A stretch of 64,000 bases of DNA from an uncultured beta proteobacterium (GCA_963754065.1 CAVWFH010000008.1:152670-216669), one strand, 5' to 3'; numbered from the stretch's first letter, positions 595-34,323 are shown. A program made the numbers and translations. Notes: generated by a model not told the origin, from the sequence alone.

Positions 595-3500
595 ATGAGC
601 CTGTTCGAGCTGTGCATACGCCGTCCCGTCCTGTCGACGGTGTTGTCGGTGCTGGTGCTCGTCATCGGCCTGATCTCGTATTCGCGGCTGGCCGTGCGCG
701 AGTACCCGAAGATCGACGAACCGGTGGTGAGTGTGTCGACCGGCTACCCCGGCGCGTCGGCCGATGTGATCGAGTCACAGATCACCAAAGTCCTCGAGGA
801 CTCGCTGGCGGGCATCGAAGGCGTCGAATTGCTGACATCGTTCAGCCGCGCCGAACGCAGCAACATCAACGTGCGCTTCCGCATCACCCGCGACCCGGAT
901 TCGGCGGCGGCCGACGTGCGCGACAAGGTGGCCCGCGTACGGGCACGCCTGCCGGACAACGTCGACGAGCCGGTGATCTCGAAAGTGGAGGCCGACTCCT
1001 TCCCGGTGATCTGGATGGCGGTGACGGCCGGCAACCGCACGCCGCTCGAGGTGTCGGACTACCTGAACCGCTACGTCAAGCCACGCCTGTCGGTGCTGCC
1101 GGGGGCAGCCGATGTCTGGATCTTCGGCGAGCGCAAGACGTCGATGCGCATCAACGTCGATCGCGACCGGCTTGCTGCCTACCGCCTGACTCCGGGTGAC
1201 GTCGAGGACGCCCTGCGGCGGCAGAATATCGAGCTGCCGTCCGGTCGCATCGAATCGGCCAAGCGCGAGTTCTCGATTGTCGCGTCGACCGATGTCAGCA
1301 CGCGCGAACAGTTCGAAAACCTGATCGTCGCGACCTCGAACGGCTATCCGGTGAAGCTGCGCGATGTTGCCGATATCCGTGTCGGCCCAGCCGAGGAACG
1401 CGTCATCGCGCGATACCGGGGGGAGCCGTCGATCAACATGGGCCTGGTCAAGCAGGCCACGGGCAATCCGCTCGAACTGTCCCGGGCGCTGCGCGCCGAA
1501 GTGGACAAGATCAACGAGACGTTGCCCGCGGGCATGAAGATCAGCATCGCCTACGACTCGTCCGTGTTCATCGAACGTTCGATCAAGTCGGTGTTCACGA
1601 CGATCGCCGAGGCCGTGGTTCTGGTCGTGCTGGTGATCTTCTTCTTCCTGCGAAATCTGCGGGCCACGCTGATCCCGCTTGTGACGATCCCGGTATCGCT
1701 GGTGGGTGCCTTTGCACTGATGTATGTCTTCGGCTTCACGATCAACACGCTGACGCTGCTGGCCATGGTGCTGGCGATCGGTCTCGTGGTCGACGACGCT
1801 ATCGTCGTGCTGGAGAACATCTACCGCAACATCGAGAACGGCATGGACCGCGTCAGCGCCGCGGTCAAGGGCATCAAGGAAATCGGCTTCGCTGTCGTCG
1901 CGATGACGCTGACGCTGACCGCCGTGTATGCACCGCTGGCCTTCGCGACCGGACGGACGGGACGGCTCTTCATCGAGTTTGCACTGGCGCTGGCCGGCGC
2001 GGTGCTGGTGTCCGGCTTTGTCGCGCTGACGCTGTCGCCGATGATGTGCAGCAAGCTGCTGAAGCACGAGTCCAATCACGGCCGGGTCTTCACGCTGATC
2101 GAAGGCTGGCTCAACGGCTTGACCAGCGGCTACGCGCGTTCGCTCGCCTGGGTGCTGGACCGCCGCTGGATCGTCGTGATCGTGTGGGCGATCGTCGCCG
2201 GCCTCGGCGGACTGTTCTTTTCCCTGCTGCGATCGGAACTGGCGCCACTGGAAGATCGAGGCGTCATCTTCGGGCGCCTGCAGTCGCCGCCGGGCTCGAC
2301 CGTCGACTACACGTCCGAGCAGCTGCGCGCGGTCGAGAGCTACTACGAAACGATCCCGGAGATGGCCGCCTACAACGCGGTGGCCGGATTCCCGTCGGTC
2401 GACTTCGGCAACGCGATCCTGCGCCTGAAGCCCTGGGAGGAACGGACGCGCAAGCAGCAGGACATCGCGCGCGAACTGAACGCCAAATTTTCCCAGTTGC
2501 CGGGCGTGATCGGCTTCGCGGTCAATCCGCCATCGCTCGGGCAGTCGCCCCGTACGCTGCCGGTCGAGTACGTGATCATGGCGCAGGTCTCCTATGCCGA
2601 GCTCGATCGCATCGTGCAGGAATTCATCGCCGAGATCAGCAAGACCGGCATCGTGCAGAACCCGCAGTCGGATCTGCGCCTGAATACGCCGGAGCTGAGG
2701 GTCGATGTGAACCGCGACAAGCTCGGCGACCTCGGCATCTCGGTCGAGACCGTCGGCCGCACCTTGCAGACGATGCTCGGCGGCCGGCAGGTCACGCGCT
2801 TCAAGAAGGACGGTGAGCAGTACGACGTGATCGTGCAGGTCGCGCCGCGCGACCGCAGCCGGCCGAACGACATCAGCGACATCTACGTGCGCGGCCGCGA
2901 CGGGACGATGGTGCAGCTCGCCAACGTGGTGGACGTGCTTGAAGGCGTCTCGCCGCAATCGCTCAATCATTTCCAGCGCCTGCGCGCGGTGACGATCACG
3001 GCGCAGATCGCACCGGGCTACGCACTTGGCGACGCGCTGAAGATGATGGACGACACCGCCCGGCGCGTGCTGCCGCAAGGTGCGCTCACCGACCTCAACG
3101 GCGTCTCGCGCGAGTTCCGTGATTCGCAGGGCTCGATCTACCTGACGTTCGTGCTGGCACTGATCTTCATCTACCTGGTGCTGGCCGCGCAGTTCGAGAG
3201 CTTCGCCGACCCCTTCGTCATCATGCTGTCGGTGCCGCTGTCGATGACCGGGGCGCTGTTCGCGCTGTGGGCGACGGGCGGAACCTGGAACATCTACAGC
3301 CAGATCGGAATCATCACGCTGGTGGGGCTGATCACCAAGCACGGCATCCTGATCGTGGAGTTCGCCAACCAGTTGCAGGAACGCGGCGACAATCTCTTCG
3401 AGGCGGTCAGGCATGCGGCCGAACTGCGGCTGCGCCCGATCCTGATGACCACCGGCGCGATGGTCCTCGGCGCGGTGCCGCTGGCGCTGTCCGTCGGTGC

Positions 3501-6038: not shown

Positions 6039-6113
6039 GGGTGGTTAGCTCAGCGGTAGAGCACTGCCTTCACACGGCAGGGGTCACAGGTTCGAACCCT
6101 GTACCACCCACCA
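6039..6113 (+). tRNA. tRNA-Val (anticodon CAC)
   Basis: Folded by hand into a 75-nt cloverleaf. Acceptor GGGTGGT/ACCACCC, D-arm GCTC-AGCGGTA-GAGC, anticodon stem CTGCC/GGCAG with loop TTCACAC, T-arm ACAGG-TTCGAAC-CCTGT, encoded CCA. Confidence 0.9.
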
Positions 6114-6497
6114 GCACAACCCAACGATGCTCCGCGGCGTGTGCAGATGGTCCACAGCTTCACGAGTACCCGAGTAAAGCCGCAGCATGAGCGGCCTGGC
6201 CCGTCACGGGAAGGCGCGACACCAGGTCTCGCCGAGCGGCGATTCGCTCATCCGAGTCTTGACGGACGGCAAGACCGTCGCTCATTGCGGTGCTCACGTT
6301 GCTTTGTTGATGGAAGTCCGGATCGCGGGAGCTCGGATTTCGCGGTGACAGTTCCTCGTTCGGCGCCTCGTGGGGTAAGGTAGACGCTGAAGCCGAGGGC
6401 TCGCCGGTGCCTGCACTGTCTCTTCGAGGATGTCGGACGCGGTGGTGGATGACGGGTCGATCGGCCGCATTGACGTAAGTCCATACGGAGATTCGCG

Positions 6498-7646
6498 ATG
6501 CCGATCAATGATGCCCAGGTTCACGATGCCCTGTCACCCGTCAGCGAGGCGTCGGACGGCAAGCCCGAGGCCGGCATGGCGCTCTGCCTGTCCGGCGGCG
6601 GCTACCGGGCGATGGTGTTCCATCTGGGTTCCCTGTGGCGCCTGAACGAGCTCGGGTATCTGTCGCGGCTCGATCGCATATCCAGTGTTTCCGGCGGCTC
6701 CATCACGGCGGGTCTCCTGGGACTGAAGTGGAGTCGCCTGCAGTTTGTCGGCGGCATTGCCCAGCGACTTGGCCCGGAGGTCATCGATCCGATCCGTGCG
6801 TTTGCGCACGAGACGGTCGACGTCGGCTCCGTGCTGAAGGGCTTCTTCCTGCCAGGCTCGATCAGTGAGAAAGTGGCGGGCGCCTATCGCAAGCATCTCT
6901 TTGGCGACGCCACGCTGCAGGACCTGCCGGACGATCCGCCGCGCTTCGTCATCAATTCGACCAACGTGCAGACCGGATCGCTGTGGCGATTCTCCAAGCC
7001 GTACATGCGCGACTATCAGGTTGGCGAGGTCAAGTCGCCGACTCTGTCGCTGGCCACGGCCGTCGCGGCTTCTTCGGCGTTTCCGCCGGTGCTGTCCCCG
7101 ACCAAGCTGGAGCTGGATCCCGCGCAGTTCAGTCCGGCCAGTGGTGAGCCGTATCACGTGCCGCCCTACACCTCGGAGGTCTACCTGTCGGACGGCGGGG
7201 TATACGACAACCTGGGGTTGGAGACGGCCTGGAAGCGCTACGAAACGATCCTGGTCAGCGATGCCGGGCTGGGAATGGCCGCTGACCCGGATCCGGGTAA
7301 CGACTGGGCGTCGCACTCCATGCGGATCCTGAACATGATCGACAACCAGGTTCGGGCACTGCGCAAGCGCCAGCTCGTCGGAAGCTACCGGGCCGGCATT
7401 CGCAAGGGCTCGTACTGGAGCATCCGCTCGGACGTGAGGGAGTACGGCCCCACGACGGGCCTGCCGTGCCCGCCGGAGCGCACGGCCGAGTTGGCCCAGG
7501 TGGCGACACGCCTGGCGGACTTGCCGGACGAGACCCAGGAACGACTGATCAACTGGGGCTATGCCATCTGCGACATCGCGCTGCGACGCTGGGTCGATCC
7601 CAGCTTGCCGGCTGCAACCCGGTTCCCGTATTCGCGAGGTGTCTAG
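6498..7646 (+). CDS. Patatin-like phospholipase, 382 aa
   Basis: Oxyanion motif SGGGYRAM, nucleophile elbow VSGGS (GxSxG) and catalytic Asp motif SDGGVYDNLG. No obvious signal peptide. First gene after tRNA-Val. Confidence 0.9.
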   Translation: MPINDAQVHDALSPVSEASDGKPEAGMALCLSGGGYRAMVFHLGSLWRLNELGYLSRLDRISSVSGGSITAGLLGLKWSRLQFVGGIAQRLGPEVIDPIRAFAHETVDVGSVLKGFFLPGSISEKVAGAYRKHLFGDATLQDLPDDPPRFVINSTNVQTGSLWRFSKPYMRDYQVGEVKSPTLSLATAVAASSAFPPVLSPTKLELDPAQFSPASGEPYHVPPYTSEVYLSDGGVYDNLGLETAWKRYETILVSDAGLGMAADPDPGNDWASHSMRILNMIDNQVRALRKRQLVGSYRAGIRKGSYWSIRSDVREYGPTTGLPCPPERTAELAQVATRLADLPDETQERLINWGYAICDIALRRWVDPSLPAATRFPYSRGV

Positions 7647-7726
7647 GAAGGGACGTAGACGCCTGAAGAACAGCGCATGCTGCGGATGTCTTCGAGCTGC
7701 AGCATGGCCGAGGAGGGGGGCAACGA

Positions 7727-10700
7727 GTGCTGAAGAACATCGTCGGTGACTGGGGCTCGGCTCTGAGCGACGGTGAGTACGCCTGCGCGCTGGCGGCCCT
7801 CGGTGTGCTCGAGGCGACCGGTTCCCATCAGCATCGCCCCGGTTCCGATCGGGCCGAACTCGTGGACGCGCTGAGGCAGGAGTTCCGCCACGGCGACAAC
7901 ACTGCGGTCTGGCGAAGGTCGCAGAACGTGAACAAGACCACCACGGTCGCTTCCTGGCGCGAGACGGAGCACACCGACGCGGCGGCGCTTGCGGAAGCGT
8001 GGCGCGAGTATCTGCGCGGGGTTACGCATCCGAGGCAGATGCCGCGGCTTGCCCTGATGGCCGACTGGCGGCATCGCTCCGATCTGTTTGACTTCGATGC
8101 GCTGTGCACATGGCTGAAGCACCGGGACGTCGGCTTGCAGGCATTCGTGCTGGCCGATGGTCGTGAATGTGAGGCCGGTGCACGCTGGCATTGGCCACTT
8201 CGAGTCGGTGTTCCGGCGGGAAAGGAATGCGCGAGCATCCTGGACGCGCTGCGCAAGGCGCAGCAACGTGAAGCTTGGATTGCGGAGCTGTCGCAATGCT
8301 TCGCCGTCGGAGACGCGCGCGACGCTTGTGACCTGTTGATCCTGACGTCCGCGGCCGCCACGGCGATCCTCAGCCAGCCGCGGTCACGAATCCGCGCCCG
8401 CTTCGTTGCCTGCATTGAAACGTCACCGCCTGTCCTTGCGCCGCTCGCCGAACGGTATGCCGGATTGCGCGCTCGCACCGGGGCCGCGGGCGTAGCCGCG
8501 GTGTATGGCGCCGACGGATCGTTTCAGCTTTCCGACTGGTTCACCGCCGTACTGCGCGAGGTGTCGCATGACCTGCCGATCCACGCGGCTGTGTGGGGCA
8601 CCGGCCAGTGGCGCTTTAACGTCGACCCACTGATATTCGGCGACCCGGGCGCTCTCGACGCATGCCGCATCCTGTCGATCGCCGAAAGGCAGGATCGCAT
8701 CGTCGCAGCGCTCGAACCAGCGGCGCTCCAGGAGCTCACGCTTACGAGATCAATCGGGTCTGGCGACGATGCCGTGCCGACATTTGGTGGGGCGACGGGC
8801 GGGGACAGGGCCATGCCCTCGGCACCCAGTCCCGGGCCGAGTCCCATCGCGCATCGCGGGCTGGCCGATGCTTTGCGAAACCGCCGGTTTGTTTCGGAGT
8901 CGGTGGACGGCATCGACACGGCGCGCGACCTGAAGGCGCAGGAAGGCGAGATCGACCAGGCGCGGCCCCCACGCTGGATACAGGCGAACGCCTGGCGCCC
9001 CGAGCAACCAGAAATTGCCGCTCGCTCGCTCGCTCCAAGGCAGTGGAATCTGCTCGGTGTGCACATCGGTCCGAGCGACGTGCCGCTGGCCGGTGCGGTT
9101 TTCAACGAAGGCGCGATCGACTTCAGCGGGGGCGAAGTTATCGTGTCGGTCCAGCTGGAACTGTCGGGCGCAAACGTGGCGCCGCTCGATGCGGCCTCGC
9201 TCGAGGCGATGTTTGGCGGTCAGCTCTTTCCCGGCGACCTGCACGACGGCGGTGAGCGGGTCGAGCAACTGCTGCGTGGACCGCTGGCGAAGCTGCCGGT
9301 GGAGCCGGAGCCTAAGAAGGGTTCGACCACCGTTGGACTGGCAGCAACGTCGATCGTCCTGCCGCCCGCCGGGGACAGCACGCTGGCGCTTTTTGCTGTC
9401 TTCCCTGAGCGCGGTAAGAAGATCGATGGCCGCATCGCGATCATCCACAAGAACCGGATTCTGCAGACGGCGCGGCTGTCGGTCGGTGTCGGCACCGCCG
9501 CGGCCCGCGGCGCTGGGCTGGATGTCATTGCGGAAGCCCCCATCCACCCCCGCGACGACGATCTCGACGAGCGGCGTGACTACGATGTCGCGATCCAGCT
9601 GAGCGACGTCGGCGGCAAGCTGCACCTGAAAGTGCATCGCAATGGCCGCGACACCCCCGTCCAGCTCGACGCGCTGCAGGGGCCGATTGGCCGGATACAG
9701 AAGGGTCTGGAAAACGCCGCACGGAGCTGGGACTACGCGAAGCCAGTGCTGCAACAGCCGGTGCTGGGCTCGAGCCTGCGAACGCTGGCTGCGGCCGGCA
9801 GCGAACTCGCCAAGCACCTGCGCGACACCTGCGGCGACGACATCGATCTCTGGGAGCGCATCCACCTCGTGCCGTACACGAAGGAGTTTCTGCCGCTGGA
9901 GTATGTCTACGACGGGCCGCCCCCGTCGATGGACGCGTCGCCGTGTCCGAACCTGCTGGGAGGTCTGGATCGCGGCGCCTGCGACCGTGCGCTGGGAACG
10001 GACGAGGCGCCGACGCCGTGTCCCAACTCGAACGACGGGGAGTTCGTGTGCCCGATGCACTTCTGGGGCTTCCGCCGGCTGATCGAACGCAACGGCGCGC
10101 TGCGTCCTGCCGCAGATGATGGGGCGGCCACGGCTTCGACTTCCAGCAGCACGCCCAGCAAGCGCACCTATGGCAAGGTTGGCTCACTGCTCTTCGCCGC
10201 CAGCGAGCGTGCATTTCGTTACGAAGCGGAGCCGGCTGCCCAGGCCGCTGAGCGGGCCGCGCTCGTTCAGGCACTCGGCGTGCTGGGCGCGACCGTGACC
10301 GACGTTGCGGACTGGAAGCAGTGGCGCACGGCCGCGCAGTCGAAGCCCGACATGCTGGTCCTGGTGGCCCATACGGATGTGGTCGACGAGACCCCGGTGC
10401 TCGAGATCGGAGCAGGCAAGATCCTCGGTCGGCATGAGATTTCCGCCAAGGTGAGCGGCGCCGCGGGTGAACCGCAGATCCTGCTGCTGCTCGGCTGCTC
10501 GGCTGCCGACGTCACCGAGAACTTCCAGCCCTATCCGGAGTGCTTCCGCGACGCCGGAGTGAGTATCGTGCTGGCTCCGGTGGCACCGATTCGGGGCAAG
10601 GACGCCGTGCCGATCGCCAAGCGCATTGTCCAGCGCCTCGCCGATCGACTCGCACAAGCCGAGCCCACCTCATTCGGCGAACTCATGCCGCTGCTGCGGC

Positions 10701-10783
10701 GCGAGTTGCTGTTCGCCGGTCACCCGGGTGTGATGGGCCTCGTCGGCTTCGGCGATGGCGACTGGCTGCTTGGAGGCCAATGA
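7727..10783 (+). CDS. Large hypothetical protein (1018 aa) with a C-terminal divergent CHAT/caspase-like domain
   Basis: Uninterrupted 1018-aa ORF with a GTG start behind GAGGAGGGGGG. The last ~200 aa align block-for-block with the canonical CHAT domain of the 22671-25367 protein: LLFAAS / ILVASA; MLVLVAHT / TIVHFIGHG (His); QILLLLGCSAA / TLVFLNACQTG (Cys); AGVSIVLAPVAPIRGKDAVPIAKRIV / HGLPALVANQYSVLDSSATQFAQHFY. I did not recognise the N-terminal 800 aa. Confidence 0.6.
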   Translation: MLKNIVGDWGSALSDGEYACALAALGVLEATGSHQHRPGSDRAELVDALRQEFRHGDNTAVWRRSQNVNKTTTVASWRETEHTDAAALAEAWREYLRGVTHPRQMPRLALMADWRHRSDLFDFDALCTWLKHRDVGLQAFVLADGRECEAGARWHWPLRVGVPAGKECASILDALRKAQQREAWIAELSQCFAVGDARDACDLLILTSAAATAILSQPRSRIRARFVACIETSPPVLAPLAERYAGLRARTGAAGVAAVYGADGSFQLSDWFTAVLREVSHDLPIHAAVWGTGQWRFNVDPLIFGDPGALDACRILSIAERQDRIVAALEPAALQELTLTRSIGSGDDAVPTFGGATGGDRAMPSAPSPGPSPIAHRGLADALRNRRFVSESVDGIDTARDLKAQEGEIDQARPPRWIQANAWRPEQPEIAARSLAPRQWNLLGVHIGPSDVPLAGAVFNEGAIDFSGGEVIVSVQLELSGANVAPLDAASLEAMFGGQLFPGDLHDGGERVEQLLRGPLAKLPVEPEPKKGSTTVGLAATSIVLPPAGDSTLALFAVFPERGKKIDGRIAIIHKNRILQTARLSVGVGTAAARGAGLDVIAEAPIHPRDDDLDERRDYDVAIQLSDVGGKLHLKVHRNGRDTPVQLDALQGPIGRIQKGLENAARSWDYAKPVLQQPVLGSSLRTLAAAGSELAKHLRDTCGDDIDLWERIHLVPYTKEFLPLEYVYDGPPPSMDASPCPNLLGGLDRGACDRALGTDEAPTPCPNSNDGEFVCPMHFWGFRRLIERNGALRPAADDGAATASTSSSTPSKRTYGKVGSLLFAASERAFRYEAEPAAQAAERAALVQALGVLGATVTDVADWKQWRTAAQSKPDMLVLVAHTDVVDETPVLEIGAGKILGRHEISAKVSGAAGEPQILLLLGCSAADVTENFQPYPECFRDAGVSIVLAPVAPIRGKDAVPIAKRIVQRLADRLAQAEPTSFGELMPLLRRELLFAGHPGVMGLVGFGDGDWLLGGQ

Positions 10784-12009
10784 TGTTGAAACTGCAGATG
10801 CTTCCCGCGGGATGTGGTGATTGCCTCTGGCTTGAATATGGCAAGGGTGCCGCGAAACGCTACGTGATCATCGATGGCGGCCTCACGGAGACCGCGACAG
10901 CGTTGCGCCAGCGCATTGAAACGGCGCGCCGGGAGCGAGGCGTCGACACGCTCGAGGTGGAACTGCTCGTCGTCACGCACATCGACAACGATCACATCCT
11001 CGGCATCATCGATCTGCTGAAGGCGGAAACCCCGGGCTTGCGCATCAAGGACATCTGGTTCAACGGGCGGCCGCAGCTCATGGGTCTGCCCACGCCGCCT
11101 CGCGGCGGCGGCAGGAAGAGCAAGGCGAGGGCGGACGGTCCGACGGACCTCATGGGCGGCGCCGACGACACGGACGAGGCTGACGATGACGACCTCGCCG
11201 CGGGTGAAACTGCAGCACCGGTCTCGGCGGCCGACCTGCTTGGGCCGCAACAGGGCGATCAGCTGTCGAAGGTGCTGGCCGCGCGCAACCTGCCCTGGAA
11301 CAAGCACGCCTTGTGGAAGGGCGGTGCCGTGATGATTCCCGACAGCGGGACCTTGCCCAGCCTGACGCTTCCCGGTGGACTCAAGCTGACCGTGCTTGGT
11401 CCGAGCATCGAGCGGCTGTACAAGCTCTGCACAGTCTGGGTCGACGTGCTCGGCGGCAACGAAGGCAACGCGGACGCACAGTCAGCCGGACCCGACGATC
11501 TGCTGGGACGCCGCGAAACCTGGCCGCCGGTCTGGAAGGACGGCGAAGGTCGCGATCCTTCGGCTGCCAACGGCTCGAGCATCATGTTGCTCGCCGAGTA
11601 CGACGGCCATGCCTTGCTGCTCTCCGGCGACGGCTATGCGCCCGACATTGTGGCGGGCATCGATCGCGTCCGCGCCGAGCGCCATCTGGCGGCCCCGTTT
11701 CCGCTGGACGCCTTCAAGTTGTCGCACCATGGCAGCGAGAACAATCTCACGCGTGCCGTTCTCGAAGGAATCGACTGCCGTCGTTTCATCGTGTCCACCA
11801 ACGGCACGGTCCATCACCATCCGGATCACCAGGCGCTGCTGCGCATCCTGCGCTATATGCCGACGCGTCCCGAGCTCCTGTTCAACTGCCGCGCCGAGAC
11901 CACGCGACGCTGGGAAGAATCGAAGCGAGATGTGACGCGGAAGTTCCAGGACTACGACACTCGTTTTCCGACCAACCCCGCAGAAGGCCTGACACTCAGT
12001 TTCGGCTGA
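10780..12009 (+). CDS. MBL-fold metallo-hydrolase (ComEC-C-terminal-like), 409 aa, with an acidic/basic low-complexity insert
   Basis: Sequence MMLKLQMLPAGCGDCLWLEY...VIIDGG, metal motif VVTHIDNDHILG, later LLSGDG and KLSHHGS. The ATG at 10780 overlaps the upstream stop (ATGA), implying translational coupling. The track's longer 10540 start lies inside the upstream gene. Confidence 0.85.
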   Translation: MMLKLQMLPAGCGDCLWLEYGKGAAKRYVIIDGGLTETATALRQRIETARRERGVDTLEVELLVVTHIDNDHILGIIDLLKAETPGLRIKDIWFNGRPQLMGLPTPPRGGGRKSKARADGPTDLMGGADDTDEADDDDLAAGETAAPVSAADLLGPQQGDQLSKVLAARNLPWNKHALWKGGAVMIPDSGTLPSLTLPGGLKLTVLGPSIERLYKLCTVWVDVLGGNEGNADAQSAGPDDLLGRRETWPPVWKDGEGRDPSAANGSSIMLLAEYDGHALLLSGDGYAPDIVAGIDRVRAERHLAAPFPLDAFKLSHHGSENNLTRAVLEGIDCRRFIVSTNGTVHHHPDHQALLRILRYMPTRPELLFNCRAETTRRWEESKRDVTRKFQDYDTRFPTNPAEGLTLSFG

Positions 12010-12242
12010 GGTCCCCAAGCGGGCGCTGTGAACTCACGGCCGTCGGTGCTGCCAGCCGATGGCCGCGCCGCACGCGTCGGGCAGTGTTTCCCTTGTGTTG
12101 CAGCCGTGAGTTCCGTTGAGGCCAAGTGCCGCCCTCGTTGCCGGCCTTGCAGTGTGGAGGTCTTGACTTGCGACGGCCGGAAGACTGGTCGTGGCGCATA
12201 CGCGAGCGCAGGTAAGGGACACGTGACCCCGGCCTTTGATCG

Positions 12243-13019
12243 TCAGGCCACGCTCAGTTCTTCGGCAGGACGCTTGCGCAACCCGCGATCCGGCGCCTCG
12301 CCGGAGACGATTGCGCGCAAGCCGTCGGGATTCACGATCCGGACATGCTTCTGATTGACCTCCAGAAGCCCGTCTTGCGCGAAGCGCGACAGGGTGCGGC
12401 TGACAGTTTCGAGTTGCAGGCCGAGGAGACTGCCAATTTCCGCGCGCGTCATCCGCAACACGAACTCGGTGCGCGAATAATGGCGCGCCTCGAAGCGCAG
12501 CGAAAGGTTGAGCAGGAACACGGCCAACCGCTCGTCTGCGTTCATTGTTCCGAGCAACAGCATCGCGCCATGTTCGCGCACGATTTCACGGCTCATTACC
12601 TTGTGAAAGTGGTTGCGCAGCTTCGGCACCGCGCTGGCGACTGCTTCAATTCCGGCGTAGGGAATGACACAGACGTCGCTGTCCTCCAGGGCCACCGCTT
12701 CGCACGTGTGCGTCCCGTCGCTGATTCCATCCATGCCAACGAGCTCGCCGGCCATGTGAAATCCCATGACCTGCTCGTGACCATCGGGCGACACCGCCGT
12801 GCTCTTCAGGAATCCCGTTCGAACCGCGTACAAGGATTCGAACGTATCGCCGGCACGGAACAGCCTCTCTCCGCGTCTGAGACGCTTGCTCGCAGCGACG
12901 AGTCTTTCCAGTCTTTCGATGTCTGGAAGCGACAGTCCGAGTGGAAGACACGATTCGCGCAGGCTACAGGTAGAGCACGCGACCTTCGGGTGCGTAATGG
13001 ACCGATTCGGAGCATTCAT
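12243..13019 (-). CDS. fnr: Crp/Fnr-family transcriptional regulator, FNR/ANR type (oxygen-sensing [4Fe-4S] class)
   Basis: N-terminal Cys cluster C-x2-C-x5-C (ACSTCSLRESC) plus a central Cys (DSDVCVIPY). Has a cNMP-like beta-roll and a C-terminal HTH with the FNR-type E--SR recognition motif (ETVSRTLSRF). ATG at 13019 chosen, giving 258 aa; the longer ORF start at 13190 adds a non-homologous extension. Confidence 0.8.
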   Translation of the reverse strand: MNAPNRSITHPKVACSTCSLRESCLPLGLSLPDIERLERLVAASKRLRRGERLFRAGDTFESLYAVRTGFLKSTAVSPDGHEQVMGFHMAGELVGMDGISDGTHTCEAVALEDSDVCVIPYAGIEAVASAVPKLRNHFHKVMSREIVREHGAMLLLGTMNADERLAVFLLNLSLRFEARHYSRTEFVLRMTRAEIGSLLGLQLETVSRTLSRFAQDGLLEVNQKHVRIVNPDGLRAIVSGEAPDRGLRKRPAEELSVA

Positions 13020-13325
13020 GAGCCGTACTCCCATGCAACCAGCGGCGTGCCCATCGCGCATGCCGTCTTGGCCGCCTGTCGACTTACTCACGAGCAGGGA
13101 GGTTTCGCTGTAAACGTGGACAGCGCATGAATTCGGACAGGGAGCGCGCGGCTGGAGTTCATGCAAGAGGCCGCGCCGAAAGGTCAGCATACAGTAACGG
13201 GGTCCGTTACAAGGAAGTTAGCCTACCGGCCCATGCCAGTTGGCGTCAGGAACCGAAACCCAATTGCATAGCGTCCCTCCTCGAATGAGGGAGAATCGAG
13301 CGAAATTCGATCCGCGAGAGCACGT

Positions 13326-14636
13326 TTGCCAACGGAAGAGCGCCCATCCGGCACGCACTGTGCCATCGATTTCGGTACGTCTAACTCGGCGGTCGCCAAG
13401 GTCAGGCCGAGTGCCGGCAATCGAGACGCCGCTCGCGGCGTCCAGCTCGCTGCGCTCGAGCACGGCGCGACAAGCATGCCGACGGCGGTGTTCTACAACG
13501 CGGAAGACGGCTCGCTCTCCTACGGGAGAGCGGCGATCGCCGCCTACGTAGATGGTCACGAGGGCCGTCTCATGCGGTCTCTCAAGAGCATTCTCGGATC
13601 CGACCTCATGGACGAGGCGACCGAACTGCCCAACGGTCTGCAGGTACGGTACCTCGATGTCGTTGTCACCTACCTGCGGCATCTGAAGCAGCAGGCTGAA
13701 GCGCATTGGAAATCGCCAATCGAACGCGTGGTGATTGGTCGACCCGTCTTCTTCGTCGATGGCGACCCGAAGCGTGACGCGCGGGCGCAGGACACGCTGC
13801 GTCGAGCAGCGAAAGCCGCCGGGATCGCAGAAGTGCAATTCCAGTTCGAGCCGATCGCAGCCGCCCTGGACTACGAATCCCGCCTGAATCCGGGCGACGG
13901 TGAGCGTCTCGTGCTGGTGGCGGACATCGGCGGCGGGACCTCCGATTTCTCACTGGTCCGCGCCAGCGCGTCGGCCCATGGGCGAACCGATCGCCGCGGC
14001 GATGTTCTGGGAAACCATGGCGTGCACATAGCCGGCACCGACTTCGATCGCTCGATCAATCTCGCGACGATCATGCCGATCCTTGGATACGGCGGAGTGG
14101 GTCCCGGAGACCGGCCCGTTCCCTCAAAGGTCTATTTCGATCTCGCCACTTGGCACCTGATCAACACCAACTACGCACCGAAACGCATGGCCGAGCTGAG
14201 GCTGATGCGCCCCATGTACAGCGATTTGCTGGCGCACGAACGTTTGATGCGCGTCCTTGAGCAGCAGCGCGGCCATGACCTATCGGCCCGTTCGGAGGCC
14301 GCCAAGATCGCCGTGTCGGAATCGGGAATTGCGAAGATTTTCCTCGATTTCATCGAACCAGGGCTGGAGAAGGAGCTCACCGAGATTCAGCAGAGCCTGG
14401 CCCTACGGCAGGACATTGAACGCGTTGTCGGCGCAGCTCACGAAACTCTCAGGTCGGCGCAGGTGGCGCCTGGTCAGGTCGATGCGCTCTACTTCACGGG
14501 CGGATCGACCGGGCTCGAGAATCTCGTGGCCAAGCTGGCGGCGACTAGCCCCTCTGCTCAGGTTGTCCGCGGCGACCGGTACGCGAGCGTAGTAAGCGGC
14601 TTGGCGATAACGGCGTCTCGCACGTTTGCAGGCTGA
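13326..14636 (+). CDS. Hsp70-family ATPase, YegD-like putative chaperone, 436 aa
   Basis: Actin/Hsp70 NBD phosphate-1 motif AIDFGTSNSAVA, phosphate-2 VLVADIGGGTSDFSLV and adenosine motif YFTGGSTG. Lacks a full DnaK substrate-binding domain. TTG start. Confidence 0.8.
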   Translation: MPTEERPSGTHCAIDFGTSNSAVAKVRPSAGNRDAARGVQLAALEHGATSMPTAVFYNAEDGSLSYGRAAIAAYVDGHEGRLMRSLKSILGSDLMDEATELPNGLQVRYLDVVVTYLRHLKQQAEAHWKSPIERVVIGRPVFFVDGDPKRDARAQDTLRRAAKAAGIAEVQFQFEPIAAALDYESRLNPGDGERLVLVADIGGGTSDFSLVRASASAHGRTDRRGDVLGNHGVHIAGTDFDRSINLATIMPILGYGGVGPGDRPVPSKVYFDLATWHLINTNYAPKRMAELRLMRPMYSDLLAHERLMRVLEQQRGHDLSARSEAAKIAVSESGIAKIFLDFIEPGLEKELTEIQQSLALRQDIERVVGAAHETLRSAQVAPGQVDALYFTGGSTGLENLVAKLAATSPSAQVVRGDRYASVVSGLAITASRTFAG

Positions 14637-14913
14637 CGGCAATGGAACGCGGACGGCGTTCGCGTGCGTGGAAACTGCCGTATGACAGATCGCCGTCAGA
14701 TCCCGAGGCCCGTTGTTCCGATTGGCTTGCTTCACAGTGGAAGCGACAACAGGTTTGAATGGCAGCAGATTCCCGAAGCCGCCGGGACCGTCATTCGACC
14801 TTCGTGAGGACGTAGAGTGAACAAACGTTGGCCAACTCCGGACCTCGCGGTTCCTCCCACAACCTTCCTGAAAGCGGACAGAATTCCGCCTTCCTCTTCG
14901 TTGGAGTAAGGAC

Positions 14914-16084
14914 TTGGCCTTTGATCCGCAGTCCGCCACGGCGGCATACATCGACGCAATCGGCACCGACAGCACTGGCCAAGTCAGCTGCCTATACCGT
15001 CGGAAATCACTGGCTACTGCTGTGGGGTTTGGTGGTCGGCATTGCGGTCGCCTGGCTGATCATCCGTTCTGGACTCCTCGAACGCATCGACGCACGACTG
15101 GGCAAGCGCGGCCCTAATGCGAGGGCATTCCTGGTGAGCGCCGTCTACTTCCTTCTCGCCGGCGTTCTTTCGCTGCCTTGGTCGATGTACGAGGATTGGT
15201 GGCGGGAGTCGAGCTACGGTCGCTCCTCACAACCGTTCGGTGATGCCTTGGGGCAGAGTCTTCTCGGTATCTCAATCTCGGCCTTGCTGGCTGGGCTCTT
15301 CTTTATGGGTGTGTACGCACTGATCCGGCGTGCGGGCAAGCGCTGGTGGGTCTGGTCGGGTGCACTGGCCGTTGCGGGGATATCGGCCGTACTGCTGGTG
15401 GCCCCTGTGGTCATCGAGCCGCTTTTCAACGACTACAAGCCGCTGCCGGAGGGTCCGGTCCGGACGTCCTTAACTGGCATGGCTGCGGAGGCTGGCATTC
15501 CGGTGGATCGAATCTTCGTATTCGACGGGTCGCGCCAGTCGAACAACTTTACGGCGAACGTCAGCGGCCTGGGTCCCTACGCCCGGATAGCCATCTCAGA
15601 CATCGCGCTGAAGGGCGCGTCGCTGGAGGAGGTCCGCGCCGTAACCGCCCACGAGATCGGGCACTACACGCTGCGCCATGTATGGCGTTCCGTGCTGCTG
15701 TTCTCCTTGATCGTCATGCTTGCCTTCTTTATCGCTGATCGCAGCTACGGCCGGGTTGCGGCGGCACTCGGCAGTCGTGCCCCGCTGTCCAGCCCGACCA
15801 GTCTGCCGGTCGTCATGGTGATGATGTCGTTGCTCTTTGTGCTGGCTCGACCGCTGATCAATGCATCTATCCGGTTTGGAGAGACACAGGCCGACCAGTA
15901 TTCGCTGGAAACCGCGAAGCTCCCCGACGCCCTGGCGAGCGCACTGGTGAAGACCGCGGAGTACCGGTACCCGCGGCCGCATCCGGTCCAGGAGATGCTC
16001 TTCTACACGCATCCTTCGGTGGAGCGGCGCGTTCGAATGGCCATGGACTGGAAGGCGGCCAATGCGGTCGAGCCGACCAAGTGA
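14914..16084 (+). pseudogene. M48-family (Ste24/HtpX-like) zinc metalloprotease, membrane-bound; frameshifted as sequenced
   Basis: HEXXH motif (AHEIGHYTLRH) and multiple TM helices lie in the 14828 frame. The family-typical N-terminus MAFDPQSATAAYIDAIG lies in the 14914 frame (TTG behind GGAG). The frames must switch near 14960-14985. Span length is 3n+1. Confidence 0.7.
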
Positions 16085-16290
16085 CTCCGTGCGGCCATGA
16101 CCGGACGCCTTCATAGGTTGCGCGGTTATGCCGAAGGCGGACGCGGGGCAATCGCCGTAACGTTGACTTCTGCTGGGCCGATGAGCGTCTCCTGCGCGAG
16201 GGCTTTGGTGCCGCAACCCGTCGCCTGAAAATCTACGAAGGGAGTTGCAAAAATGTGGTCAAGCGATAGGAGCACCTGGACAGCCGCGGC

Positions 16291-16854
16291 TTGCCAGCGT
16301 CCACGAACATGAAGGCGCGCGAACGAGAGGAATTGCTACAAGCGTTGAAGACGCGCTTCGAGGCAAACATGCATCGGCACAGAGGGATTGCATGGGCAAG
16401 CGTGCTGGCAAGGCTCCAAGGCAATCTTGTTGCAGTGAAGTCGCTAGGCGCGATGGAGGCGACCGGCGGTGAGCCGGACGTCATTAGTGCGCATGCGGAG
16501 GCCGACCCTTTCAGATTCTTCGATTGTTCCGCAGAAAGCCCACTAGGCCGCAGAAGTCTTTGCTACGACCGCGAAGCGCTGGACGCGCGCAAGGAGCACA
16601 AGCCGAGGAGTAGCGCGGTCGAGATGGCCGCAGCGATGGGAATCAAGCTGCTAACCGAAGTGCAATATCGAGAATTGCAGTCAGTCGGCGAGTTCGACAC
16701 GAAGACTTCCAGCTGGATTGAGACGCCGGCGGACATTCGCTCGCTTGGCGGAGCCATCTTCTGCGACCGACGGTATGGCAAGGTTTTCGTTTATCACAAC
16801 GGGGCCGAGTCGTACTACGCGGCCAGGGGTTTCCGCGGCTCACTACTGATCTGA
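16291..16854 (+). CDS. DUF4256-like protein, 187 aa
   Basis: Recognised pattern REELLQALKTRFEANMHRHRGIAWASV...MEATGGEPDVI, which I recall as characteristic of DUF4256. Function unknown. Confidence 0.6.
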   Translation: MPASTNMKAREREELLQALKTRFEANMHRHRGIAWASVLARLQGNLVAVKSLGAMEATGGEPDVISAHAEADPFRFFDCSAESPLGRRSLCYDREALDARKEHKPRSSAVEMAAAMGIKLLTEVQYRELQSVGEFDTKTSSWIETPADIRSLGGAIFCDRRYGKVFVYHNGAESYYAARGFRGSLLI

Positions 16855-16876
16855 GTTCACTGCACTCTGTTGCCAA

Positions 16877-17239
16877 TCAGGCCGACGCGTAGTGCACGTA
16901 CGACTCGCGGACCACGCCGTCCTTGTCGAAGAACAACACCTCGATGACATGCGTGCCCGTGATGCCCTGGTAGTGGATCGCAATGCTGTCGACGCCGCGC
17001 AGCACGTCGAGCACGGTGAACTTGATGTGGTCGAACACCTCGAAGCCTTTCTTCACGTACGCACGCAGCGCCGCCTTGCCCTGTACGGTGCCGCTGGGGT
17101 CATGGCTCAGCCGAGCAATCAGCGGGGAGTGGAAGATCACGTCGTTGGTGTAGAAGGCCAGCACGCGATCGAGATCCTTTGACTCGAATGCGGCGACCCA
17201 ACGCTTCACGTAGTCGGCAGTCTTCTCCATCGTCAGCAT
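16877..17239 (-). CDS. SnoaL/NTF2-like small protein, 120 aa
   Basis: Sequence MLTMEKTADYVKRWVAAFESKDLDRVLAFYTNDVIFHSP is typical of SnoaL-like/NTF2 folds. The ATG at 17239 is preceded by GGAGGAG; the longer track ORF is an upstream extension. Confidence 0.65.
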   Translation of the reverse strand: MLTMEKTADYVKRWVAAFESKDLDRVLAFYTNDVIFHSPLIARLSHDPSGTVQGKAALRAYVKKGFEVFDHIKFTVLDVLRGVDSIAIHYQGITGTHVIEVLFFDKDGVVRESYVHYASA

Positions 17240-17491
17240 CGATGTCTCCTCCGGTGTGGGTTGCGGCGGCCGGATCTTGGCCAAGCGTCGGCCAGTGTGC
17301 CACGCGCCACCCCACCGGTGGTAGTCGGCCAACAGCGGCCATTGCCTACGGACCCCCAGTTCGCTTGGCAGCGGACAGCAGGCGATGATCCGATATGGCC
17401 GGTTGTGGAGTTCCCAGGATTCAGTGGACACGGTCGCGACTCTCTGGGGCCGCGACCGAAGCGCGCGTGCTTCTTGCCCGCAGCTATAGAA

Positions 17492-18664
17492 CTACTTTGC
17501 GCTTCGCTCAGGTCCTGTTGTCCACGGATAGCCGCCCTTGGCGCGCTCGAATCCAAGCTCGAGCAGCTTGCGCATGTAGGCGGGGTCGAATTTCTCGCTT
17601 GGACGATCCCTGAACGATGCGGGAATGTAGGCCAGGTTGTAATTCAGACCATCCCTTTGCGTGAGCAGATAGATCTGGGCGAGGTCACCGATTCCTTGTG
17701 TGCGGATCAGCGAATCGACGGTACGCATAAGGATCGGCACGATTCGACGCGTCACGCCCTCCCAGGCGAGCTCGCCATGCGCGTTGCTGATGATGTACAA
17801 GGACGGACGGCCCTGGATGCCGAGCCGGCGCTCCACCGCCTTCCAGTCCAGCCCACTCGGGTAAACAAATACCTGTGCGGTTACACCGCCGTCGACGTGG
17901 ATCTCATCGAAGGAGCGACCGTTCGCCTCTACGTCGATCATGACTGGCGGAAAAATCCCCGGAATCGATGCCGACGCCAAGATCACGTTGTGAATCAGGA
18001 CCCGCGCACGAGGTGATCCGCTGGCTGCAATCCGCGTGACGTTCCAGGTAACCGGACGTGCAGCATCCAAGTTGGTCGTGCCGACCAGCAAAGACCGTCC
18101 ACGACGGTATTCCCCCGCAAGCTCTGCGATCACCTCGTCGTTGATGTATTGCTCGATCAGCCGTCGCAAAGGGGCGGAACTCGTTGCAGAATCATTTCGC
18201 AGAATGTCGAGCAAGCCGCGCGGCTCGACCAGATCGGATGTCGACAGGTTTGTGTAGAGCTTACGCAGCGTCTCGTCGTACTTGGGGCCGAGGAATGCAA
18301 AGGGGGCGATCAACGCACCGGTACTGATTCCGGTGACGATGGTGAACTCCGGACGTGTGCCGTGCGCAGTCCATCCAATCAGCACTCCCGCCCCATAAGC
18401 CCCGTCGGCGCCTCCACCTGAGAGGGCAAGATAGTTATGTGGGCGATTGCTGATGCCTCCGAAATTGCTTGCGATAGCGGAATCGGGAAGCTTCAGCCAG
18501 GTATCGAAGCCGGCTGGCCGGGCATCGCCCCAGTAGCGAGCGCCAGGGACTCCCGGTATCGAGGCGGCGTCCGCGTACTCTTCTGGAAGTGGAGAAACCC
18601 GAGAGGGAGCCGACGCGCATGCGGTCAGAAGGGCGGCAGCAAGCAAGGCAGTAAGACGGTGCAC
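17492..18664 (-). CDS. Patatin-like phospholipase, probable lipoprotein
   Basis: LSGGGADGAYGAGVL (oxyanion), GISTGALIA (GxSxG) and VDGGV (Asp). A GTG at 18664 behind AGGAGA gives the signal peptide VHRLTALLAAALLTAC with a lipobox Cys. Confidence 0.8.
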   Translation of the reverse strand: MHRLTALLAAALLTACASAPSRVSPLPEEYADAASIPGVPGARYWGDARPAGFDTWLKLPDSAIASNFGGISNRPHNYLALSGGGADGAYGAGVLIGWTAHGTRPEFTIVTGISTGALIAPFAFLGPKYDETLRKLYTNLSTSDLVEPRGLLDILRNDSATSSAPLRRLIEQYINDEVIAELAGEYRRGRSLLVGTTNLDAARPVTWNVTRIAASGSPRARVLIHNVILASASIPGIFPPVMIDVEANGRSFDEIHVDGGVTAQVFVYPSGLDWKAVERRLGIQGRPSLYIISNAHGELAWEGVTRRIVPILMRTVDSLIRTQGIGDLAQIYLLTQRDGLNYNLAYIPASFRDRPSEKFDPAYMRKLLELGFERAKGGYPWTTGPERSAK

Positions 18665-18977
18665 ATTGTCTCCTATGCAGTCGGCGGCGGTGAGCGAAAT
18701 CGCGGAATCTGAAATTATCTCCGAGTGCAAAATTCACCCGGGTCGCTCGCAGGCAAGCTTCGATGGACTGAATGCGGCCAGGAGCGGTAGTTGGTCCAAC
18801 TGCGCTAAAGCGGTCAGTGAACGGGTAAATGGCCACTGAGTGGGAACGTCAGAAAGCGGCCGTCATCGACCAAGCAGCAGCGCATCTACGCCTCGACATA
18901 CCGCATCACCGTTCCCGCTCGCTAACTCGATGAGGAAATCGGCAGGAACTCAGAGTTTCCATGGGAACATCTTCGTC

Positions 18978-19943
18978 ATGAAACGGTTTGCGCAAGGCAT
19001 TCTTCTCACCTGCGCGCTCATCTGGCTGCCCGCCACCGCCCAGGCCCAGCCGTTCCCCACCGGCCCGATAAGTCTTGTGGTTCCGCTTGCCCCGGGTGAC
19101 GCTGCAGACATTGCCGCGCGCGCCCTTGGCGAAGATATCTCAAGACAACTGAAGACGCCGGTGCTCACGATCAATCGTCCGGGCGCCGGGGGCGCGGTCG
19201 GCACCAACTCCGTCGTCCAGGCCAGACGGGACGGTTACACGATTCTGTTTGCGCAAAACAGCGCGCTCACCTTTCGTGCCGTTCTCGACCCAAAATCGGT
19301 CACCTACGATGCGCTCCGGGATCTGGTGCCACTCGGCACCGCCTCACGCACGCCGACCATCCTCGTCGTGCGCAGCGACGCACCGTACAGGAACTTCGCA
19401 GAGTTCATCGATTACTCGAAGAAGAATCCGGGCCGGGTGCGTATTGGTCACCCCGGCTCCGGCTCAGTCGGTGATTTCTGCGTGCAATTGATCAACGCGC
19501 TAACAGGTTCGGAGCTCGTGCCGGTTCCCTATACCGGCGCTGCCCCCGCCATCGTCGCATTGCGCGGAGAACACATCGAGGGGGTCGTGCTGTCGCTCGG
19601 TGCGCTGAGCGCTCACATCAAGTCAGGGGCGTTCCGGGGTCTCGCCGCTTCGAGCCGATTTCCTGAGTTTGTCGACATACCCACGCTGCGCGAGCTCGGC
19701 TATCAAGAGGAACTGTTCGGCATCTGGTTCAGCTTTCTCGCGCCGGCAGGGATCCCCGAAGACGCGAGGAAAGTCCTCGTCGGCGCGATCGAACAGGCGG
19801 TCAAAGCTCCGGCGATCACGGCGAGACTGGCGTCGCTCGGCATCTTGCAGAGTTACGCCACACCCGAGCAGACCGCGGCCGAGATCCGCGCGGAGTTCAA
19901 GCGGGCAGGCGAGATAGCCAAGAAGACCGGTTTGGTCAAATGA
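18978..19943 (+). CDS. Bug-family (TctC-like) tripartite tricarboxylate transporter periplasmic binding protein
   Basis: Signal peptide MKRFAQGILLTCALIWLPATAQA followed by FPTGPISLVVPLAPGDAADIAARAL and NRPGAGGAVG, both typical of the Bug family. ATG at 18978 chosen. Confidence 0.85.
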   Translation: MKRFAQGILLTCALIWLPATAQAQPFPTGPISLVVPLAPGDAADIAARALGEDISRQLKTPVLTINRPGAGGAVGTNSVVQARRDGYTILFAQNSALTFRAVLDPKSVTYDALRDLVPLGTASRTPTILVVRSDAPYRNFAEFIDYSKKNPGRVRIGHPGSGSVGDFCVQLINALTGSELVPVPYTGAAPAIVALRGEHIEGVVLSLGALSAHIKSGAFRGLAASSRFPEFVDIPTLRELGYQEELFGIWFSFLAPAGIPEDARKVLVGAIEQAVKAPAITARLASLGILQSYATPEQTAAEIRAEFKRAGEIAKKTGLVK

Positions 19944-20092
19944 AGCTGTTCATGCAGGCGCGGAAAGAGATTCAGTGCAGCAGGCCTGCCGCGGGGGCGC
20001 GCGCATCCGGCACCACGTCGCAGACTTACCGCCGCGGCTCATATTGAACCGTTTGGCGGTCGCAGAGTGCACACTAATTCTGGAGCATCAAA

Positions 20093-20912: not shown

Positions 20913-21349
20913 TCAGCGCCGCCCAGCAATGTGCTGCACTTGAAGCGGCCGAGTGGCGCTGCATCGTGGCGTGATGGCGTCAGGATTTGCTTCGGCCAGT
21001 GCTCAGCGGCCGCTAGGCCGCGCAGGTGAGCACCGAGCCGTTTAACGTCTGCTATCGGCGTCAAATTCGCGTCCGCTTTACGGCGACGCGTATGTCTGCT
21101 CGGGGTCGGGTTGTGCCGATAGGCGACTCCCGACGATAGTCACTCGATTGCCGGTTGCTTTCGGGTGCTGAAAACGCGTCGGCGGTGCGACGAACGCAAT
21201 GTCAGCAGTGGTTTGGTCTCGGTCGATGCAAGCGTCAACCTGGCAGCGGTCAAGGACTTCCGACCTCCGAGTTCTATCTAACCCGCCCGCGCAGCCACCC
21301 AGCCCCGGCAGGGTTACAGTCCGCGCGCCTGCCTCGCTTGATCCGTAGC

Positions 21350-22459: not shown

Positions 22460-22670
22460 GACGCACGTCCTCCTCGGTGACCGTTGCTGAAGCGGAAGGG
22501 CGCAGGCGATTGCGCACCCTGCGGCCCCGTCCGGGGCCATTGTGGCAGCGCGTCCCTCCGGCCGGTTGAAAACGCTCTGGTTCTGCGATCGGTCAAGACG
22601 CGGAACTTGGCAGCCTGATCAAAATGGGAACATGATTTGGTGTCGACCACGCCACTGATTCACACTGCTC

Positions 22671-25367: not shown

Positions 25368-25383
25368 AAGCGAGGTAATGCAC

Positions 25384-33470: not shown

Positions 33471-33546
<76 letters not shown>

Positions 33547-33591
33547 AAGACCGCTTCCAAAGCCCGCTCACGCGGGCTTTGAATTGAAACG

Positions 33592-33667: not shown

Positions 33668-33676
33668 GTCAATTCA

Positions 33677-34271: not shown

Positions 34272-34323
34272 TCATGGCGATTGATGTCGATCGGTGCGTC
34301 CTTGTCAGCACGCGACATCAGGT

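Follow-up and report, generated by a model that had tools for sequence, protein, structure and literature searches.

A predicted caspase-type protease and gated metallo-beta-lactamase-fold nuclease encoded side by side near a tRNA-Val gene in an uncultured betaproteobacterium

Nucleases of the metallo-beta-lactamase (MBL) fold that are switched on by a protease have been reported from several bacterial defence systems. HamM and Avs1a were described as 'gated' pro-nucleases; in the case of HamM, a trypsin-like partner cuts after Ile118 and Ile218 and thereby removes two loops inserted relative to the ComEC domain, which yields an active deoxyribonuclease (DNase) (Tuck et al., Science 2025, PMC12799240). 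The same study placed a further clade of these nucleases downstream of caspase-family proteases, under the name 'canu', and found that KaeCanABC from Klebsiella aerogenes protects against T4, with both catalytic sites and both predicted cut sites being required (PMC12799240). Evans et al. independently described an MBL clade 2 which adjoins caspase-like proteases, along with double cleavage and a Zn-dependent DNase activity on double-stranded DNA (bioRxiv 10.1101/2025.11.14.688446). Proteolytic loss of two gating loops is the step that turns HamM, Avs1a, CanC and VcMBL into DNases (PMC12799240; bioRxiv 10.1101/2025.11.14.688446). Here we describe a related locus in a stretch of 64,000 nucleotides (nt) from an uncultured beta proteobacterium (GCA_963754065.1, CAVWFH010000008.1:152670-216669), hereafter called the window. 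The locus holds three genes in the same orientation, which we name A, B and C, and the pair of B and C is the main subject of this study.

6498-7646, plus strand: gene A, patatin-like phospholipase, 382 residues (Pfam PF01734)
7727-10783, plus strand: gene B, 1018 residues, predicted sensor and clan-CD (CHAT/caspase-fold) protease (AlphaFold2 and Foldseek)
10780-12009, plus strand: gene C, MBL-fold (ComEC-like) predicted pro-nuclease, 409 residues (Pfam Lactamase_B, PADLOC)

We consider it fairly probable that B and C constitute a caspase-type protease and pro-nuclease module, most likely one directed against phages. The first line of evidence is gene linkage. A total of 112 loci were gathered, their six-frame open reading frames (ORFs) were searched with hidden Markov models (HMMs), and near-identical loci were collapsed to 87; for this de-replication the C-terminal 200 residues of B were compared, with 95% identity as the threshold. 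It should be noted that most metagenomic contigs are short, which limits the denominators of all co-occurrence counts given here. Among the 82 assessable non-redundant loci, 79 have an MBL gene as the immediate downstream neighbour of B (31 of 31 among the first loci), and this linkage spans B identities from 25 to 99% and several phyla. In one exception, locus L090, the MBL gene is found 0.7 kb from the B homolog, beyond an inserted PIN/VapC-like ORF (1416-1823, minus strand). The identities of B and MBL co-vary strongly (Spearman 0.97, n=17), and so do those of B and the patatin (Spearman 0.88, n=9); this shows co-inheritance, and by itself it is no proof of functional co-evolution. The pairing of B with an MBL gene is far from chance, and the conserved core of the locus is the two-gene unit of B and MBL. 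The original prediction for this DNA had described a three-gene cassette and pointed to synteny outside this genome as a matter to be checked. The large gene and the MBL gene are indeed kept together elsewhere, while a patatin gene directly upstream of B and on the same strand was detected in only about half of the loci (26 of 55 assessable, Acidobacteria and Deltaproteobacteria included), and a linked fourth gene, here called D, had been missed.

Close relatives of B form 64 clusters in a collection of 5.8 billion proteins. Of 185,579 species representatives, 20 carry B, mostly betaproteobacterial metagenome-assembled genomes together with Zoogloea ramigera, Acidobacteria and Deltaproteobacteria. 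When 1.84 billion representatives were searched with a profile, B proved to belong to a much larger family of 1948 clusters (50% identity) at E<=1e-3, and 1138 at E<=1e-30, whose members are about 900-1000 residues long and have the N-terminal motif and an LLLGCET catalytic motif in common. No B homologs were detected in 50,697 phage records. The arrangement is also present in RefSeq, on the Sinorhizobium medicae plasmid pMl1 (L113; NZ_CP140902.1, 98294-101859), where a distant B homolog of 846 residues, annotated as 'hypothetical protein', precedes an 'MBL fold metallo-hydrolase' and has HNH endonucleases, IS66 and a Vsr endonuclease as neighbours. Azospirillum oryzae and a plasmid record of S. 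meliloti (NZ_CP066361.1, 1.58 Mb) gave similar matches.

Gene C passes the Pfam threshold for Lactamase_B (29.7 bits, cut-off 22.7), and its PADLOC matches are the Lamassu LmuA-type MBL PDLC03854 (2.5e-56), a reverse transcriptase-associated MBL (2e-38) and Avs1a (7e-38). Against the NCBIfam Avs1a equivalog NF041809 it reaches 169.6 bits, far under the cut-off of 420. The metal motif THIDNDH contains H67, D69, D71 and H72 (nt 10978-10995), along with D284, H316/H317 and H347/D349 further on. For comparison with characterised nucleases we used the sequences of KaeCanC, PflHamM and Citrobacter Avs1a from Table S1 of Tuck et al. The closest of the characterised nucleases is KaeCanC, with 29.6% identity over 406 columns by BLASTP (E=1.4e-49), and the HMM of the C family (A2) gives KaeCanC 227.8 bits compared with 150 for HamM and 145 for Avs1a. 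Conservation extends to the catalytic motifs H-x-D-x-D-H, HH and H-P-D.

The C-family profile matches the ComEC nuclease domains in PDB as two separate segments, which are set apart by about 110 additional residues, and two insertions could be placed in C:

11068-11259, plus strand: insertion 1 of C, residues about 97-160, predicted gating loop and cleavage sites (alignment A2)
11443-11508, plus strand: insertion 2 of C, with D-V-L-G (222-225) and P-D-D-L-L-G (240-243), predicted second gating loop and cleavage site

Insertion 1 is variable and rich in Lys, Arg and Asp, and is bracketed by P-x-D-L-M-G (123-126, nt 11146-11157) and A-D-L-L-G (152-155, nt 11233-11244). The general motif D-[LIVMF]-[LIVMF]-G is present in 3-4 copies in 24 of 31 C orthologs, compared with 0.2 expected in shuffled sequences, a 15-20-fold enrichment, and no copy is found in A, B or D. 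When aligned with MAFFT, Ile118 of HamM coincides with Leu154 of C (AADLL/GPQQ) and Leu103 of CanC (LEGL/GAVQ), where the slash marks the position that corresponds to the mapped cut in HamM, and Ile218 of HamM coincides with Leu241 of C (PDDLLGRR) and Leu185 of CanC. From these alignments we predict that the insertions are gating loops which block the active site and that the D-L-L-G motifs are the cleavage sites.

Gene B gave nothing usable when searched against Pfam, PADLOC, NCBIfam and PDB sequences, neither as a single sequence nor as the profiles A1 and A5; the sole matches of the A5 profile were at chance level (a designed binder, E=0.09, and FbpC, E=0.47). An AlphaFold2 model built on 49 homologs, with a predicted local distance difference test score (pLDDT) of 81.6 and a predicted template modelling score of 0.78, is of good confidence. 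The top match of the model against PDB by Foldseek was Csx29 (3.7e-8), the TPR-CHAT protease of the type III-E clustered regularly interspaced short palindromic repeats (CRISPR) system; further matches were separase (3e-5), the CHAT anti-sigma factor DdvA, gingipain (1e-4), SAVED-CHAT and animal caspases (about 1e-3). The best matches are all clan-CD proteases, matched at the level of the fold and not by residue-level superposition. The following features were assigned within B:

7727-9691, plus strand: B residues 1-655, putative sensor/oligomerisation region (separate AlphaFold2 model)
9944-10051, plus strand: B residues 740-775, four cysteines C740, C752, C765 and C775 (alignment A5)
10370-10372 and 10496-10498, plus strand: codons of the predicted catalytic dyad, His882 (LVLVAHTD) and Cys924 (LLLLGCSA)

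His882, Gly923 and Cys924 are invariant in both A1 (49 sequences) and A5 (44 sequences, 22-49% identity), and in the model His882 and Cys924 are located at the ends of beta-strands 876-886 and 918-924, as in caspases. B itself has no match to Pfam CHAT (PF12770) above the gathering score, while weak CHAT matches were detected in 5 of 44 relatives (best 4.5e-5) and Peptidase_C25 in one relative. For two relatives scanned individually, P0221 and P0261, the CHAT matches reach 19-22 bits (cut-off 24) and the matched segments span the aligned His and Cys. The CHAT-like C-terminus claimed in the original prediction is hence supported at the fold level, without passing the Pfam threshold. Alignment A5 also shows four cysteines shortly ahead of the catalytic domain: C740 and C775 do not vary, and C752 and C765 are each kept in at least 90% of the sequences. 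This cluster is probably a zinc-binding insert. The loop beside it, residues 794-811, is disordered in the model.

The start of gene B is a GTG, with GGAGG about 9 nt before it, and this start is supported because the N-terminus MxKNIxGDWG is conserved in all homologs. When residues 1-655 were modelled alone (pLDDT 81.2) they gave a helical head with the conserved GDWG...YACALAALG motif, an alpha/beta domain at about 100-330, a disordered linker at 332-372 and an Ig-like beta-sandwich at about 416-646. Foldseek found no match to this region in PDB at E<=1e-3. Naming an N-terminal domain was rejected, as the matches of the beta-sandwich (CARDB, adhesins) and the match to SAVED-CHAT (E=0.03) are too weak. 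There is no Walker A motif in B. As modelled, the N-terminal region of some 650 residues matches no known fold and is a candidate new sensor module; it had been described as an 800-residue region of unknown type, of which the type is borne out by the fold search and the length is not, as about 650-700 residues is closer.

As judged from its motifs, gene A is a bona fide patatin. It matches PF01734 with 80 bits (cut-off 27.7, 3.5e-22) and carries the oxyanion motif GGGYR at 33-37, the nucleophile Ser65 in VSGGS and the catalytic Asp232 in DGG; S65/G66/G67/S68 and D232/G233/G234 are at least 95% conserved among 36 non-redundant patatins adjacent to B. The gene is found upstream of B also in the distant loci L021, L023, L028, L029 and L032, in the last of which B is only 27% identical. 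The patatin is a frequent, ancient and dispensable, or facultative, partner of B and C.

The fourth gene, D, is separated from C by an insertion:

21350-22459, minus strand: gene D, 369 residues, probable papain-like (C39-like) cysteine peptidase (sub-threshold Pfam, conserved residues)
12011-21340, no strand: lineage-specific insertion of 9.33 kb between C and D (blastn collinearity, GC profile)

D has no Pfam match above threshold. All ten aligned members give sub-threshold matches to Pfam Peptidase_C39_2 (best 6.7e-4) over GHC...YD...DRFxYHDPWP, and Cys78, His130 and Asp148 are invariant among the aligned members, so D is probably a papain-like peptidase. Its family comprises 91 clusters, all named 'hypothetical', many of them on contigs shared with B homologs. 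D is 72% identical to the gene found right after MBL in L001, and within the closer sub-family a D homolog of about 370 residues lies convergent to MBL, 20-60 nt past it, in 11 non-redundant loci. By blastn, positions 6487-12010 of the window are collinear with L022, L019, L013, L014 and L001, and the collinearity resumes at 21341 (D) and goes onward through 22606-25984. Because the alignment of the relatives breaks at 12010 and resumes at 21341, we regard the insertion as specific to this lineage and as having split an ancestral cassette between C and D. Its G+C (GC) content of 0.60-0.63 coincides with a dip in the GC profile, and it carries genes for Crp, an Hsp70-like protein (weak PADLOC PDC-M61B match), an M48 peptidase, DUF4256, SnoaL, a second patatin, TctC and a methyltransferase. 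The second patatin (17492-18730, minus strand) matches a PADLOC phospholipase effector with 2.4e-14. The 9.33 kb contain no mobility gene and are flanked by no notable direct or inverted repeats.

What we observe at this locus is the gene order and its conservation, the folds, the catalytic residues, the homology of C to CanC, HamM and Avs1a, and the way in which the motifs line up with the cleavage sites mapped in HamM. By homology we infer that C is a substrate of B, that a DNase is switched on by the cut and that the module serves against phages; the parts given to A and D below are proposals as well. C would be made as an inactive pro-DNase, in which two loops with repeated P-x-D-L-L-G motifs block the ComEC-like active site. 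B would be a cytoplasmic, non-ATPase protein whose CHAT/caspase domain (His882/Cys924) stays inactive until an infection cue is perceived by the N-terminal alpha/beta and Ig-like region, probably via oligomerisation. Active B would then cleave C at, or beside, the Leu-Gly found in the D-L-L-G motifs and so remove the gating loops, and the unlocked C would act as an indiscriminate zinc-dependent DNase, phage replication being stopped by death or arrest of the cell. A may be a facultative second effector, co-inherited with B and C in about half of the loci, and D a further linked component in the sub-family, with a regulatory role. The logic of a sensor/protease coupled to an effector, suggested in the original prediction, holds in this scheme; the MBL protein as a free-standing effector does not, as its homology to CanC predicts a protease-gated zymogen.

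The surroundings of the locus were also investigated. The trio lies downstream of a tRNA gene:

6039-6113, plus strand: tRNA-Val, anticodon cac (ARAGORN)

The three genes are co-oriented and follow the tRNA as predicted, though not immediately, since a spacer of 384 nt separates the end of the tRNA from the start of A. The gap between A and B is exactly 80 nt, and B and C overlap by ATGA, the ATG at 10780 overlapping the TGA of B (CAATGATG); both details had been read correctly from the sequence, and the stop/start overlap suggests translational coupling of the two genes. A scan for promoters and terminators gave two promoter-like and two terminator-like sites, none of them at gene boundaries, and no hydrophobic run hinting at a signal peptide or membrane segment was found in A, B, C or D. 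The GC content of 0.64-0.67 over 6-12 kb is similar to that of the remainder of the window, and Pfam detected no integrase or transposase domains among the ORFs scanned in 0.6-28 kb, both in agreement with the earlier claims of host-like GC and a missing integrase. No repeat of the tRNA-Val 3' end was found in the window. On the basis of the host-like GC, the lack of an integrase and the lack of a tRNA 3'-end repeat, an integrative-element origin of the cassette was rejected.

The same tRNA-Val(cac) flanks the cassette in L005, L006 and L024 and is also present in L001, four related genomes in all. In L001, 6.3 kb with nSTAND1-WD40 and CHAT-SIR2 genes are found between the tRNA and the patatin, and because these genes are wedged in at this point we regard the tRNA-Val junction as a variable hotspot in this betaproteobacterial lineage. 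Neighbours of defence type are the CHAT-SIR2 genes of L001 and L017, the nSTAND1-WD40 gene of L001 and, in L004, HsdR fragments of type I restriction. The CHAT-SIR2 fusion, with PADLOC matches to SAVED_CHAT and ThsA STALD, lies upstream of the cassette on the opposite strand (L001, 455-6422 region; L017, 3626-5770). As to a location in defence islands, which had been put forward as a check, some loci lie next to restriction or SIR2 genes and many beside ordinary genes, so that the defence-island support for the cassette is only moderate.

Other genes of immune type are found in the window. At 22671-26559 on the plus strand there is a gene for an 898-residue astacin and canonical CHAT protein (PF12770, 2e-35), followed 10 nt later by a GDSL lipase gene. 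An astacin-CHAT gene is found near B in 18 of the 87 loci and a GDSL lipase gene in 7 of 87, with the distant loci L073 and L088 included, and on gene content the two might be a second possible protease-lipase effector pair that often accompanies B and C. Further candidate immune genes, by their domains, are a TIR-domain gene (34324-35322, minus strand), in a low-GC patch (0.59; 33471-35322 region) just past tRNA-Ala and tRNA-Glu, and a TIR-TPR gene (41384-43132) right after dnaE.

Several observations weigh against B and C as a protease-gated anti-phage pair. The sequences of B and CanA are not similar, and a CanB homolog is missing from the window, so the transfer of the mechanism rests on the nuclease and on protease similarity at the fold level. 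The placement of His882 and Cys924 in an active site is derived from conservation and strand positions. Many of the related loci lie beside ordinary metabolic genes and not recognised defence genes, and in L076 and L099 there is no MBL gene within 5 kb of the B homolog. The D-L-L-G motif weakens in the most distant sub-families, and as A lacks it, nothing ties the patatin to the predicted specificity of B. Another explanation draws on three points: hhalign found no relation between the B family and the window's own canonical astacin-CHAT protein, B does not reach the Pfam CHAT threshold, and the Lactamase_B superfamily is very broad. In this explanation B is an inert scaffold or pseudo-protease and C an ordinary metal hydrolase, of the ComEC-like DNA-processing or small-molecule type, with no proteolytic licensing. 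We hold this to be highly improbable, as His882 and Cys924 are invariant in more than 40 sequences of 22-49% identity, the fold search points specifically to proteases of clan CD, the specific relatives of C are protease-gated nucleases and not lactamases or glyoxalases, and its conserved repeated motifs stand exactly at the mapped cleavage positions.

A device for cell death or antagonism, not primarily anti-phage, is clearly unlikely in our view, yet it has some observations in its favour. Suicide during development or under stress, in bacteria that form flocs or live in soil, or the delivery or use of the products in interbacterial conflict, would agree with the Pvc16_N and cell-wall peptidase genes of L007, the nearby Tle1-like lipase of a type VI secretion system in L011, the amidase_2, astacin and GDSL lipase genes in the window and its relatives, the small number of loci in recognisable defence islands and the missing matches in phage records. 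On the other hand, CanC, the closest characterised homolog, as well as HamM, Avs1a and VcMBL act in phage defence, none of the four proteins A to D has the hydrophobic run expected of a signal peptide or membrane segment, and the obligatory pairing of a cytoplasmic protease with a zymogen fits self-directed abortive infection. That the patatin and D are functional parts of the module is possible, and we lean slightly against it. The narrower explanation, that only B and C form the system and that the patatin and D are travelling neighbours, for example independent effector or toxin genes in a shared hotspot, appears somewhat unlikely. It draws on the 29 of 55 assessable loci with no patatin directly upstream, on the 80-nt gap between A and B as opposed to the overlap of B and C, on the missing D-L-L-G motif in the patatin, on the position of D, which is on the opposite strand, limited to the closer sub-family and here 9.3 kb off, and on the other lipase and protease genes of the hotspot (the second patatin, and the astacin-CHAT gene beside the GDSL lipase gene). 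Against it, the patatin keeps its position and strand in Betaproteobacteria, Deltaproteobacteria, Acidobacteria and metagenomes, even where B is only about 27% identical (L021, L023, L028, L029, L032 and many of L033-L112), it diverges in step with B, and D homologs often share contigs with B homologs and abut MBL in the 11 loci mentioned above. At the other extreme, B could represent a large unnamed family of stand-alone immune proteases (about 1,900 clusters at 50% identity) whose N-terminal alpha/beta and Ig-like region is a new sensor free of NTPase; in this sub-family one B would control both a DNase and a membrane phospholipase, and the papain-like D would be a further step or a brake. 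We think this unlikely; if true, it would amount to a bacterial multi-effector, two-protease death cascade.

When compared with named systems, several could be set aside. AVAST type 1 was rejected because the Avs1a score is under the cut-off and B has no STAND, trypsin or Walker A; Lamassu because neither neighbour of C matches the LmuB or LmuC models or has a P-loop, hence no SMC; systems of defence-associated reverse transcriptases (DRT) because there is no reverse transcriptase; and cyclic oligonucleotide-based antiphage signalling systems (CBASS) because no cyclase was detected by Pfam on the ORFs scanned in 0.6-28 kb or by PADLOC on the cassette and six neighbouring ORFs. What the locus shares with CBASS of the patatin type (CapV) is a patatin whose Ser-Asp dyad is intact, encoded in what may be an immune operon; it differs in having no CD-NTase cyclase or signal-binding domain, and the match of A to the PADLOC phospholipase effector is weak (6.6e-6). 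The CHAT-based defences (Craspase Csx29-Csx30, SAVED-CHAT and caspase-gasdermin) also combine a sensor-controlled clan-CD protease with a latent effector next door, and Csx29 is the strongest structural match of B. Here, however, there is no gRAMP or CRISPR, SAVED, cyclase or gasdermin, the predicted substrate is an MBL nuclease, and B remains under the Pfam CHAT threshold. The trypsin-MBL modules (HamMAB, Avs1/2/4, Lamassu, DRT) have the same nuclease family and the dual-loop zymogen layout that is predicted for C. They differ in that their protease is a trypsin-like serine protease and not a clan-CD cysteine protease, in that the nuclease gene is upstream there and downstream here, and in that our locus has no STAND NTPase, helicase, SMC or reverse transcriptase sensor.

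The original prediction held that the combination matches no system that can be named. This no longer applies, as the locus fits the caspase/CHAT-activated MBL pro-nucleases of 2025 ('canu', MBL 'clade 2'). As in Canu, the MBL nuclease gene is directly downstream of the gene for a caspase-family protease, the His/Cys dyad is conserved, and conserved hydrophobic-Gly motifs are found in two insertions at the same aligned positions (LEGL/G and LESM/G in CanC, ADLL/G and DDLL/G in C). CanA has an Ig-like domain, and B also contains an Ig-like beta-sandwich. The proteases are otherwise different: CanA has 390 residues and is MALT1-like, whereas B has 1018 residues in a single polypeptide, with CHAT proteases and separase as the nearest folds and MALT1 ranking 49th in the fold search, and B carries the N-terminal region of about 650 residues with no known fold. 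BLAST and HMM searches found no match of B to KaeCanA or of A, B and D to KaeCanB, and a tblastn search of the whole window with CanA and CanB as queries returned no match at E<=0.01. Further differences are the third (and fourth) D-x-x-G motif of C, the patatin upstream in about half of the loci and D downstream in the sub-family. The papers on MBL-protease modules that were searched make no mention of a patatin or of this architecture.

Protease-licensed nucleases were recognised only in 2025, and their caspase-linked branch rests on one tested example, KaeCanABC. The present locus would define a second and much larger protease architecture, of about 1000 residues and with a CHAT-like fold, on the same nuclease family. 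As this architecture goes undetected in Pfam, PADLOC and NCBIfam, it is overlooked by present defence finders. The candidate recognition motif P-x-D-L-L-G, repeated in the predicted substrate, and the defined catalytic residues provide testable handles, and the natural variants with and without the patatin could show whether one protease arms two effectors. Based on the sequence comparisons, we regard the locus of B and C as a variant of the caspase-nuclease design, which shares the nuclease family and the gene order of Canu and has another protease architecture.

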